Shown here piece after piece: positions 955 to 1,092 of a DNA stretch of 64,000 nt; position 1 is the first letter of the stretch; each line of letters begins with the position of its first letter. Source of the stretch: Escherichia coli (lineage in GTDB: Bacteria > Pseudomonadota > Gammaproteobacteria > Enterobacterales > Enterobacteriaceae); assembly GCF_003334815.1 (NCBI RefSeq), contig NZ_QOWO01000009.1, one strand, 5' to 3'. Below the pieces are notes generated by a model. The model made no database searches. It saw only the letters and a list, made by a program, of their open reading frames with translations, and had not been told where the DNA came from. Both the position numbers and the translations under genes were made by a program.

Positions 955-1092
955 TAAGGGCTCTCCCCCTTCATATTTCGCGCCGCAGATGCGTTATCTT
1001 CGCTCGCTCATCCCGGTCACTTACTGATGTAAGCTCCCGGGAATTCTCGAGCTTGCCGCCTTTCTGCAACTCGAACTATTTTGGGGGAGTTA
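955..1092. repeat. ERIC/IRU-like imperfect palindromic repeat, copy A
   Basis: About 100 nt centred on TCACTTACTGATGTAAGCTCC is near-identical to 63833-63935 in this window; core matches the ERIC primer motif ATGTAAGCTCCTGGGGATTCAC as I remember it; flanking CTCCCCC/GGGGGAG dyad. Confidence 0.7.

Follow-up and report, generated by a model that had tools for sequence, protein, structure and literature searches.

Two transcribed ERIC/IRU copies in the rpsB-tsf spacer and the lpdA leader of Escherichia coli, probably lodged in the apices of older hairpins

Two complete 127-nt ERIC/IRU elements have been identified in a stretch of 64,000 nucleotides of Escherichia coli DNA (hereafter the window), one close to each end: copy A in the rpsB-tsf spacer and copy B in the leader of lpdA (Table 1). 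Both are probably old copies, no longer mobile, which sit in the apices of pre-existing hairpins, are transcribed, and are tolerated with a small effect. Each copy has entered the apex of a small hairpin already present in a transcribed spacer; copy A occupies a hairpin starting at the rpsB stop codon, and copy B a hairpin of the lpdA leader. In both cases a hairpin of about 60 base pairs is predicted to stack on the older stem below it, and transcription runs in the direction that gives ERIC RNA its best predicted fold. The insert is presumably borne at little or no regulatory cost, and any consequence for the rpsB:tsf ratio or for lpdA expression would be modest. The genes at both window ends are antisense to the strand given here (tsf with its reverse-strand end at 845, the rpsB stop codon at 1103-1105, the lpdA start at 63790). 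Both spacers are identical to those of E. coli K-12 MG1655, over 257 of 257 nt for rpsB-tsf and over the 207 nt of the aceF-lpd spacer that lie within the window.

The initial annotation had read the two stretches as ERIC/IRU copies carrying the primer motifs of that family, and both the alignment and the primer sites uphold this reading. A repeat finder returns 967-1075 and 63825-63933 as an ungapped direct repeat of 109 nt with 78% identity, and local alignment gives 85/109 identities at a score of 61. This is not an identity near random expectation, since shuffling lowers the score to 8.7 +/- 1.3 (maximum 13) and none of 1000 segments drawn at random from the window exceeds 15. The two copies had been described as sharing about 100 nt of near-identical sequence; the similarity stands, whereas near-identity does not (78% over the 109-nt core, 72% across the whole element), and the elements are longer than stated. 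Alignment with other ERICs places 7-bp terminal inverted repeats at the limits of exactly 127 nt in both copies, and a 127-bp length with 7-bp terminal repeats are the figures given for ERIC in reviews (PMC2229807). When compared with the ERIC1R and ERIC2 primers as printed in PMC6066780, copy B shows 2/22 mismatches to ERIC1R (at 63885) and 1/22 to ERIC2 (at 63863), and copy A shows 3/22 to each (at 1027 and 1005, respectively). The identification stands because these sites match and every other site in the window has 7 or more mismatches to either primer.

The wider family supports the same assignment. Canonical E. coli ERICs, from the psuT-yeiL and ybhI-ybhJ spacers, align at 69-71% identity; chance similarity and another repeat family (e.g. 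REP) have been ruled out by the primer sites together with the family alignment. A covariance model built from seven aligned copies scores copy A at 149 bits and copy B at 137 bits, both copies being seed members of the model. The same model finds no further ERIC copy in the window, and has matches in Salmonella, Serratia, Pectobacterium, Erwinia, Pantoea, Yersinia, Providencia and Pseudocitrobacter. The number of blastn-detectable ERIC places per E. coli genome is 2-16, with a median of 9. Both copies possess the following features of ERIC: (i) a palindrome of about 127 bp; (ii) the core; (iii) the terminal repeats; (iv) a transcribed extragenic site; (v) membership of a dispersed family. Rfam is without an ERIC family, the K-12 RefSeq annotation has no feature for either element, and no ERIC transposase is named in reviews (PMC2229807). 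A recent duplication of one copy from the other has been rejected: the identities are 92% between copy A and Salmonella, 79% between copy B and Pectobacterium, and 72% between A and B, so that the identity of each copy with one at the same site in another genus exceeds that with its partner in the window.

Table 1. Features of the two ERIC copies and their surroundings (window coordinates; RNA letters where U is given)
Feature	Position	Strand	Details
rpsB-tsf attenuator (terminator hairpin and U-run)	902..929	-	scan 907-929; mapped transcript end 902 = K-12 190,800
Rfam RF02798 CssrA match	908..1017	-	136.2 bits against a gathering threshold of 93; model 1-111 of 111
Ancestral basal stem, 3' strand AGCCCUUAU	954..962	-	pairs with 1096-1103 AUAAGGCU; from folds of both alleles
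ERIC copy A	963..1089	-	127 nt, ends CTCCCCC/GGGGGAG; K-12 190,613-190,739; rpsB 3'UTR / rpsB-tsf spacer
Seven non-ERIC bases UUGAUAA	1090..1096	-	arrived with copy A; missing from the empty allele
ERIC copy B	63821..63947	-	127 nt, ends CATACCC/GGGTATG; K-12 127,755-127,881; lpdA leader, +39 to +165 of 196 nt
Nineteen extra bases UGGUUAGGGUAUUACUUCA	63948..63966	-	5' side of copy B; missing from the empty allele
lpdA-leader hairpin, 5' strand CCGGUGG	63967..63973	-	partner CCGCCGG at 63813-63819
lpd promoter (-10 TAAAAT, 63992-63997) and mapped start (63985/63986)	63985..63997	-	start = K-12 127,717/127,716; scan and SMRT-Cappable-seq Supplementary Data 1, 2

Copy A had been proposed to be transcribed as part of the operon, beside its attenuator, and this is borne out by published SMRT-Cappable-seq reads and by the literature on the operon. 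The element lies between the rpsB stop codon and the attenuator, and the terminator first drawn at 908-928 agrees with the one that a scan finds on the minus strand. The monocistronic form of the rpsB mRNA ends at the attenuator, and about one third of the transcripts read through into tsf (PMC2834685). In the published SMRT-Cappable-seq tables 1340 reads start at K-12 189,712; 232 of them end at 190,800 and 906 pass it, and copy A is therefore contained in every rpsB transcript. It is the 3'UTR of the short transcript and the intercistronic spacer of the long one. Copy B, placed initially in the region upstream of lpdA, is found more exactly inside the transcribed lpdA leader, as given by the mapped start and by the -10 hexamer TAAAAT that lies 6-7 nt ahead of it. 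This copy ends 30 nt before the start codon, and has replaced the apex of the CCGGUGG...CCGCCGG hairpin located 27-29 nt upstream of that codon.

Both sites exist in a filled and an empty form within the species. In a census of 5426 complete E. coli genomes, 4095 carry the 257-nt rpsB-tsf spacer and 1327 a spacer of 134 nt, while copy B is present in 3433 (the aceF-lpd spacer has 324 nt in K-12) and 1985 have a 207-nt spacer; 75% of the genomes thus contain copy A and 63% copy B, with 24% and 37%, respectively, lacking them. The rpsB-tsf spacer sequences are single-copy in all of the approximately 5,425 matching genomes. The genomes without copy A include E. coli S88, Nissle 1917, an ST131 strain and an O145 strain, and those without copy B include O157:H7, O55:H7, ST131, NC101 and ST69. 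Among reference strains, K-12 has both copies, O157:H7 TW14359 and the GTDB representative strain have A without B, and S88 has neither. Since natural strains lack either copy, neither is essential. In the empty allele of site A, 10 nt (ACGCTCGTAC, RNA strand) stand in place of ERIC and its 7 extra bases, the natural sequence there being GGCACGCTCGTACGAGCCC; at site B about 30 nt stand in place of ERIC and 19 extra bases (an apex of 30 nt in strain S88). An origin of the empty alleles by deletion has been rejected, the apex being the ancestral sequence of Klebsiella, Enterobacter, Cedecea and Rahnella. The short alleles of E. coli carry the ancestral hairpins and therefore represent the original state.

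Comparison of the filled with the empty alleles indicates a replacement: a hairpin apex of 10 nt (A) or about 30 nt (B) has given way to the element, plus 7 or 19 extra bases. The seven bases UUGAUAA are found at the same junction in Salmonella and Pseudocitrobacter, and the nineteen-base stretch beside copy B, UGGUUAGGGUAUUACUUCA, holds a second copy of the ERIC end GGGUAU. The ERIC termini are reported as 5'-TA-3' with a TA target duplication (Delihas table, PMC2229807). No TA target-site duplication is present at A or B in this comparison; age and later change could have erased it. The rarer E. coli copy in the psuT-yeiL spacer, found in only 289 E. coli genomes, differs from its empty site by 129 nt, that is 127 + 2. 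The extra bases at both junctions, together with the missing TA duplication, count against the explanation preferred here.

The expectation that both copies give structured RNA agrees with the very stable hairpins predicted for the transcribed strand. The stretch with copy A (955-1096, 142 nt) folds at -66.3 kcal/mol (z = -8.1), and the stretch with copy B (63813-63970, 158 nt) at -75.2 kcal/mol (z = -6.3). An alignment of seven sequences, comprising both window copies, the canonical E. coli ERICs and copies from Serratia and Pectobacterium, describes one long hairpin in which 94% of the cells are paired. Compensatory double changes have been identified in 17 of 36 pairs, as against 7.8 +/- 1.8 in shuffles (0/500 reach 17) and 2-4 in slid controls; in the terminal helix, 5 of 7 pairs are affected when the copies are compared. 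For every copy the strand transcribed here has a fold better by 10-19 kcal/mol than that of its complement, and the alignment, whose copies are not independent samples, contains 20 G-U cells against 3 A-C cells. This strand asymmetry, in fold energy and in G-U excess, argues for a constraint on RNA and not on a DNA cruciform. Of seven independent insertions at sites A and B, six have the more stable strand transcribed.

The elements that flank the inserts appear to be left alone. When the whole 3'UTR or leader is folded with and without ERIC, the basal stem is kept and the downstream hairpins are unchanged; the predicted fold is the same for the attenuator hairpin with or without copy A, and for the region around the lpdA ribosome-binding site with or without copy B. 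Copy A sits atop its basal stem, whose strand at 1096-1103 overlaps the rpsB stop codons. An insert that is structurally self-contained in this way would be tolerated, which may be why it is found in such compact regulatory spacers. An effect of either copy on mRNA stability is plausible by analogy with the ERICs of Yersinia. Against a mere passenger speak the two spacers, which are more conserved than expected: the rpsB-tsf spacer is 92-95% identical between E. coli and Salmonella, and the aceF-lpd spacer 99.7% between E. coli and E. albertii, with 95.5% for lpdA itself; selection or recent exchange may account for it.

Other genera have been sampled with a chimeric query, joining the S2 C-terminus to the LpdA N-terminus, at one genome per species. 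Both loci were obtained from at least about 40 genomes, with Citrobacter, E. fergusonii and most Klebsiella outside the sample. Among the matches listed, the rpsB-tsf spacer has 113-150 nt in most Enterobacterales, and the ancestral site A in other Enterobacterales is a small hairpin, AUAAGG...CCUUAU, starting at the second rpsB stop codon. At site B the ancestral form, in most genera among the matches listed, is an aceF-lpd spacer about 200 nt long; its hairpin lies 27-29 nt before the ATG and has CCGGUGG/CCGCCGG as its closing stem, around an inner part of usually 23-46 nt. The initial annotation had called for a check of both copies in other Enterobacterales, and among the matches listed copy A is present in Salmonella and Pseudocitrobacter, and copy B in Escherichia only (E. 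coli and E. albertii). Salmonella enterica possesses a 257-nt rpsB-tsf spacer with ERIC at the same place, the junctions being GGCUUGAUAA|CU... and ...GGGGAG|AGCCCUU. Between E. coli and Salmonella the identity amounts to 92.1% for the element and 95% for the remainder of the spacer, and a C/G pair is deleted in a matched manner from the terminal stem between K-12 and Salmonella. In Pseudocitrobacter faecalis, copy A agrees in its junctions and in its unusual C-rich ends, with the central part of about 50 nt lost. The shared junctions across genera therefore indicate that copy A is a single old insertion, or a single allele that spread. Copy B is 100% identical in E. albertii, where the whole aceF-lpd spacer is 99.7% identical to that of K-12 as compared with 95.5% for lpdA; it is absent from Salmonella, whose aceF-lpd spacer has 200 nt.

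The same hairpins have been occupied in other lineages as well. Independent ERICs in the same orientation are located in the lpdA-leader hairpin of Serratia silvae and Pectobacterium betavasculorum (both seeds of the model), and one, at 39 bits and E about 4e-9, in that of Pantoea sp. IMH. The same lpdA-leader apex is occupied in Pantoea stewartii and Ca. P. persica by a different palindrome of about 120 nt, with long terminal repeats. Within the rpsB-tsf hairpin of Hafnia paralvei lies a 64-nt ERIC-like remnant of borderline score (19 bits), and in Erwinia endophytica a full ERIC of opposite orientation is found directly 3' of the intact rpsB-tsf hairpin. A universal rule of insertion into hairpin apices has been rejected, as the psuT-yeiL ERIC lies between two hairpins and the Erwinia copy just 3' of one. 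Salmonella also carries ERICs in the glnD-map and map-rpsB spacers, for which the alignments with the E. coli window are too noisy to define target sites. A tentative reading of this pattern, which we regard as possible rather than probable, is that ERIC and at least one other palindrome are drawn to, or preferentially retained in, the apices of pre-existing hairpins, a few of which serve as recurrent landing pads across Enterobacterales, and that the alleles move between species by recombination. The pattern could reflect a target preference, or a palindrome could be harmless only where a hairpin already exists; the repeated occupation of two conserved hairpins hints at such a rule of target or of tolerance. 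As to the second part, deletion cannot recreate the ancestral apex, and the simplest reading would be that whole-spacer alleles are swapped by homologous recombination through the very conserved flanking genes. Such exchange, if true, would explain why copy A is common to Salmonella yet missing from S88, Nissle 1917 and ST131, and also the identity of copy B in E. albertii.

The CssrA match within the rpsB-tsf spacer takes in the 3' arm of copy A together with two hairpins, that of the spacer and that of the attenuator. With its 5' half the same model gives a weak match of 26 bits to the 3' arm of copy B. CssrA, the chromosome-encoded Shigella sRNA A, is known from a northern band of about 110 nt; its 3' end comes from a terminator prediction, its 5' end was calculated from the band size and not mapped, and its describers proposed an independent start site (Peng et al. 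2011, PMC3071730). The locus is the same in Shigella and in the window, and the full model is matched; the original paper (PMC3071730) names map/rpsB as the neighbours, whereas the model maps here between rpsB and tsf. Judged by its sequence, CssrA is not an independent RNA class, its 5' half being the 3' arm of an ERIC and its 3' end the attenuator of the operon. SMRT-Cappable-seq places a minor capped 5' end inside copy A, at K-12 190,705 (window 997), and from there to the mapped 3' end at 190,800 there are 96 nt. In the predicted fold of copy A, window 997 belongs to an unpaired internal loop of 8 nt, GAAGAUAA. We favour an origin of CssrA by endonucleolytic processing of the abundant rpsB transcript: this transcript would be cut in the single-stranded upper part of the hairpin, and the 3' piece, shielded by the ERIC 3' arm and the attenuator hairpin, would accumulate as the CssrA of about 100-110 nt. 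The competing view is an independent sRNA gene with its own promoter inside copy A, and not a fragment of the rpsB mRNA. Were transcription truly to begin at 190,705, CssrA would be primary and not a processing product; the discoverers predicted an independent start (PMC3071730), SMRT-Cappable-seq enriches 5'-triphosphate ends, and 96 nt is near the band of about 110 nt. However, a promoter scan of 800-1150 finds no sigma-70-like -10/-35 on either strand, and the bases upstream of 997 (GAUGAGCGAGCGAAG) are unlike a -10. The loop that contains 997 is a natural endonuclease target, its A/U bases are peculiar to K-12, with GGC in their place in another E. coli strain and in Salmonella, and this strand is in any case transcribed from the very strong rpsB promoter. 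The end at 190,705 is, moreover, listed in the operon table only and absent from the start-end paired table (Supplementary Data 1). We consider an independent gene improbable on this evidence, and CssrA matches should be interpreted as ERIC-derived mRNA fragments.

A stronger claim than tolerance would be that selection maintains both ERICs as exapted regulatory RNA modules, copy A tuning rpsB decay, the rpsB:tsf ratio or a trans-acting CssrA, and copy B tuning the translation of lpdA or the stability of its leader; in that case the presence/absence dimorphism would represent different adaptive settings among E. coli lineages. The 92% identity of copy A between E. coli and Salmonella, including the matched deletion of a C/G pair in the terminal stem, can be cited for it, as can the near-identity of copy B and its spacer in E. 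albertii (99.7% against 95.5% for lpdA), the compensatory changes with their strand-biased G-U excess, and the fact that the same lpdA-leader hairpin has repeatedly taken up palindromic inserts, in at least four lineages. The ERICs of Yersinia, with their orientation-dependent effects on mRNA stability, provide a precedent (PMC2229807). Yet 1327 and 1985 of the 5426 genomes do without A or B, respectively, and they include such successful lineages as ST131, Nissle, S88 and O157:H7. The functional elements on either side are predicted to fold alike whether or not the insert is present, the conserved ERIC core is gone in Pseudocitrobacter while the ends are kept, and palindromes can stay complementary through DNA-level processes with no RNA function. 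Exaptation is accordingly rated as unlikely, and tolerated old copies remain the preferred explanation.

Two further possibilities treat the elements as DNA. They may act as cruciforms, as sites of protein binding or through topology at the lpd promoter, given that perfect-to-imperfect palindromes can extrude as cruciforms, that copy B begins 39 nt downstream of the lpd transcription start, and that other repeats of E. coli, the BIMEs, bind IHF and gyrase. A cruciform would favour neither strand, whereas the copies show an asymmetry of 10-19 kcal/mol and 20 G-U against 3 A-C cells, with the stable strand being the transcribed one in six of seven independent insertions; a review also found no DNA motif in ERIC beyond the terminal repeats (PMC2229807). 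A role at the DNA level is thus very doubtful. The pair had also been suggested to provide homology for rearrangement about 63 kb apart, and indeed both copies belong to one family and lie in direct orientation at a distance of 62,858 nt, which could in principle promote deletion, duplication or inversion of the intervening 63 kb. This suggestion is unsupported: the identity is 72-78%, and the longest identical run has 11 nt. A run of 11 nt is well below the requirement of RecA-dependent recombination. As A and B are direct repeats, exchange would delete or duplicate about 63 kb that hold essential genes (tsf, pyrH, frr and others), and deletion of such an interval would be lethal. Each spacer sequence is, furthermore, found once per genome in the approximately 5,425 matching genomes, and a recombinogenic role of the pair is hardly credible.

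ERIC, also termed IRU or RU-1, is said to have been described by Sharples & Lloyd in 1990 and by Hulton et al. in 1991. As K-12 positions of a family known since 1990-91, the two copies are as such already known. The points that may be of worth are the filled/empty dimorphism, the orthology of copy A with Salmonella, the recurrent occupation of hairpins and the ERIC-derived nature of CssrA; part of this, the dimorphism and the Salmonella orthology included, may already be in the work of Wilson & Sharp (2006). A literature search for ERIC in connection with rpsB/tsf or lpd/aceF returned nothing relevant, and a hairpin target preference of ERIC is not described in reviews (PMC2229807). The natural presence/absence variants constitute ready, isogenic-like material for the effect of a 127-nt hairpin on expression, in a ribosomal-protein 3'UTR and in the lpdA leader.

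With the described ERIC/IRU elements the window copies share the length of 127 nt, the 7-bp terminal repeats, the ERIC1R/ERIC2 core, the compensatory changes, the location in transcribed spacers and the occurrence in few to tens of copies per E. coli. The differences relate to the termini, CTCCC and CATAC instead of TATAC, to the lack of a TA duplication, and to the 7 and 19 extra bases at one junction of A and B, respectively. YPAL/RU-2 of Yersinia, as far as a review of the original work relates, inserts in or beside dyad symmetry (De Gregorio et al. 2006 via PMC2229807), and in this it resembles both ERIC copies here; in contrast to them, it is a separate family of about 168 bp without terminal TA. 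According to the summaries available, the ERICs of Yersinia destabilise the upstream mRNA via RNase E (De Gregorio et al. 2005, via PMC2229807 and PMC3184786). Copy A is similarly co-transcribed just downstream of a translated gene, with the base of its hairpin within reach of the terminating ribosome. The Correia/NEMIS elements of Neisseria and REP/BIME of E. coli are likewise small palindromes co-transcribed in spacers, whose hairpins are processed or act as stability barriers. Two REP units are also located in the window, at 18113-18147 and 52905-52939 (repeat finder). Both families differ from the ERIC copies: Correia elements are unrelated in sequence, are RNase III substrates and show a clear TA duplication, and REP, equally unrelated in sequence, consists of units of about 35 nt.

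The SMRT-Cappable-seq data (Supplementary Data 2) contain a start for tsf-pyrH-frr transcripts at window position 997 (K-12 190,705), which falls within ERIC A, the repeat copy in the rpsB-tsf spacer, on its 3' arm and at a single-stranded internal loop of the predicted hairpin. The promoter scan found no sigma-70-like promoter upstream of this position. A second start of the same dataset, at K-12 190,794, lies within the terminator stem. The ERIC A 3' arm also carries three derived K-12 substitutions, at window positions 989, 996 and 997; K-12 reads GAAGAUAACGCAUC in this region, whereas another E. 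coli strain reads GAAGGCAACGCACC, and Salmonella has G, C and C at the three positions, as in the second E. coli strain. With these substitutions the internal loop becomes rich in A/U. The two E. coli strains differ at five positions in total, all of them within ERIC A, and the remaining rpsB-tsf spacer is invariant.

The junction of ERIC A with its surroundings is also involved in a change close to the rpsB 3' end of 'Shigella sp. FC2125' (locus L093, 1915-1940). A 1-nt deletion there yields an S2 protein of 244 aa, the shifted frame entering the TGA of GGCTTGATAA, which represents the additional nucleotides where ERIC A joins the spacer; the deletion may be genuine or may stem from a sequencing error. 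In Salmonella enterica, two further full ERICs adjoin rpsB, neither with a counterpart in the E. coli window, which brings the copies around this gene to three.

At the other locus, the apex of the lpdA-leader hairpin, which is occupied by ERIC B in E. coli, contains in Pantoea stewartii and Ca. Pantoea persica a palindromic element other than ERIC, with long terminal repeats (GAGCCTATTCCATTAGGC...GCCTAATGGGATAGGCTC). The apex is enlarged also in Hafnia (116 nt) and Edwardsiella (82 nt). Identity between E. albertii (locus L007, 1206-1527) and K-12 is 99.7% over the aceF-lpd spacer, ERIC B included, compared with 95.5% over the adjoining lpdA, and the segment formed by the aceF 3' end, the spacer and the lpdA 5' end is less divergent than deeper lpdA. 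Judged from sequence, this low divergence has the appearance of a recombination tract or of strong constraint. Yersinia thracica and Providencia vermicola possess short ERIC variants, devoid of the central core.

Repeats and RNA elements in the window and in loci of other genomes; ERIC scores are from a covariance model built from seven ERIC copies, and (-) is the strand of rpsB, tsf and lpdA transcription
Feature	Source	Position	Site or strand	Method and score
Short ERIC variant (89-95 nt)	Yersinia thracica, L066	2872-2966	tsf-pyrH spacer	covariance model, 52.6 bits
Short ERIC variant (89-95 nt)	Providencia vermicola, L025	3179-3267	downstream of lpdA	covariance model, 34.3 bits
Full ERICs (two)	Salmonella enterica, L088/L089	74-204 and 1145-1276	glnD-map and map-rpsB spacers	covariance model, 121 and 88 bits, respectively
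Palindromic element (~120 nt)	Pantoea stewartii, L022	~1360-1500	lpdA-leader hairpin apex	
Palindromic element (~120 nt)	Ca. Pantoea persica, L028	~1330-1480	lpdA-leader hairpin apex	
GC-rich palindromic unit (~35 nt)	window	18113-18147, 18198-18232, 52905-52939		repeat finder
t44 (rpsB leader)	window	1856-1942	(-)	Rfam, 83.5 bits, above gathering score
HtrA 5'UTR thermometer	window	10813-10858	(-)	Rfam, 77 bits, above gathering score

Besides ERIC, the window contains a second repeat family, represented by the TGCCGGATGCGGCGTGAACGCCTTATCCGGCCTAC-like palindromic units, which we take to belong to the REP/BIME family by their appearance. The repeat finder also detected a 96-nt unit present four times head-to-tail (61806-62189; 63-85% identity to unit 1), apparently within a coding region near lpdA.

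CssrA has been placed between map and rpsB (PMC3071730, Table 1). The Rfam model derived from that paper matches the rpsB-tsf spacer (window 908-1017), and the map-rpsB spacer contains t44 rather than CssrA. Below threshold, ERIC A (window 967-1090, (-)) also matches a further Rfam family, V_AS5 (Vibrio RNA AS5), with 24.6 bits and E 0.005, which suggests that this family is likewise of Vibrio ERIC-like repeat origin.
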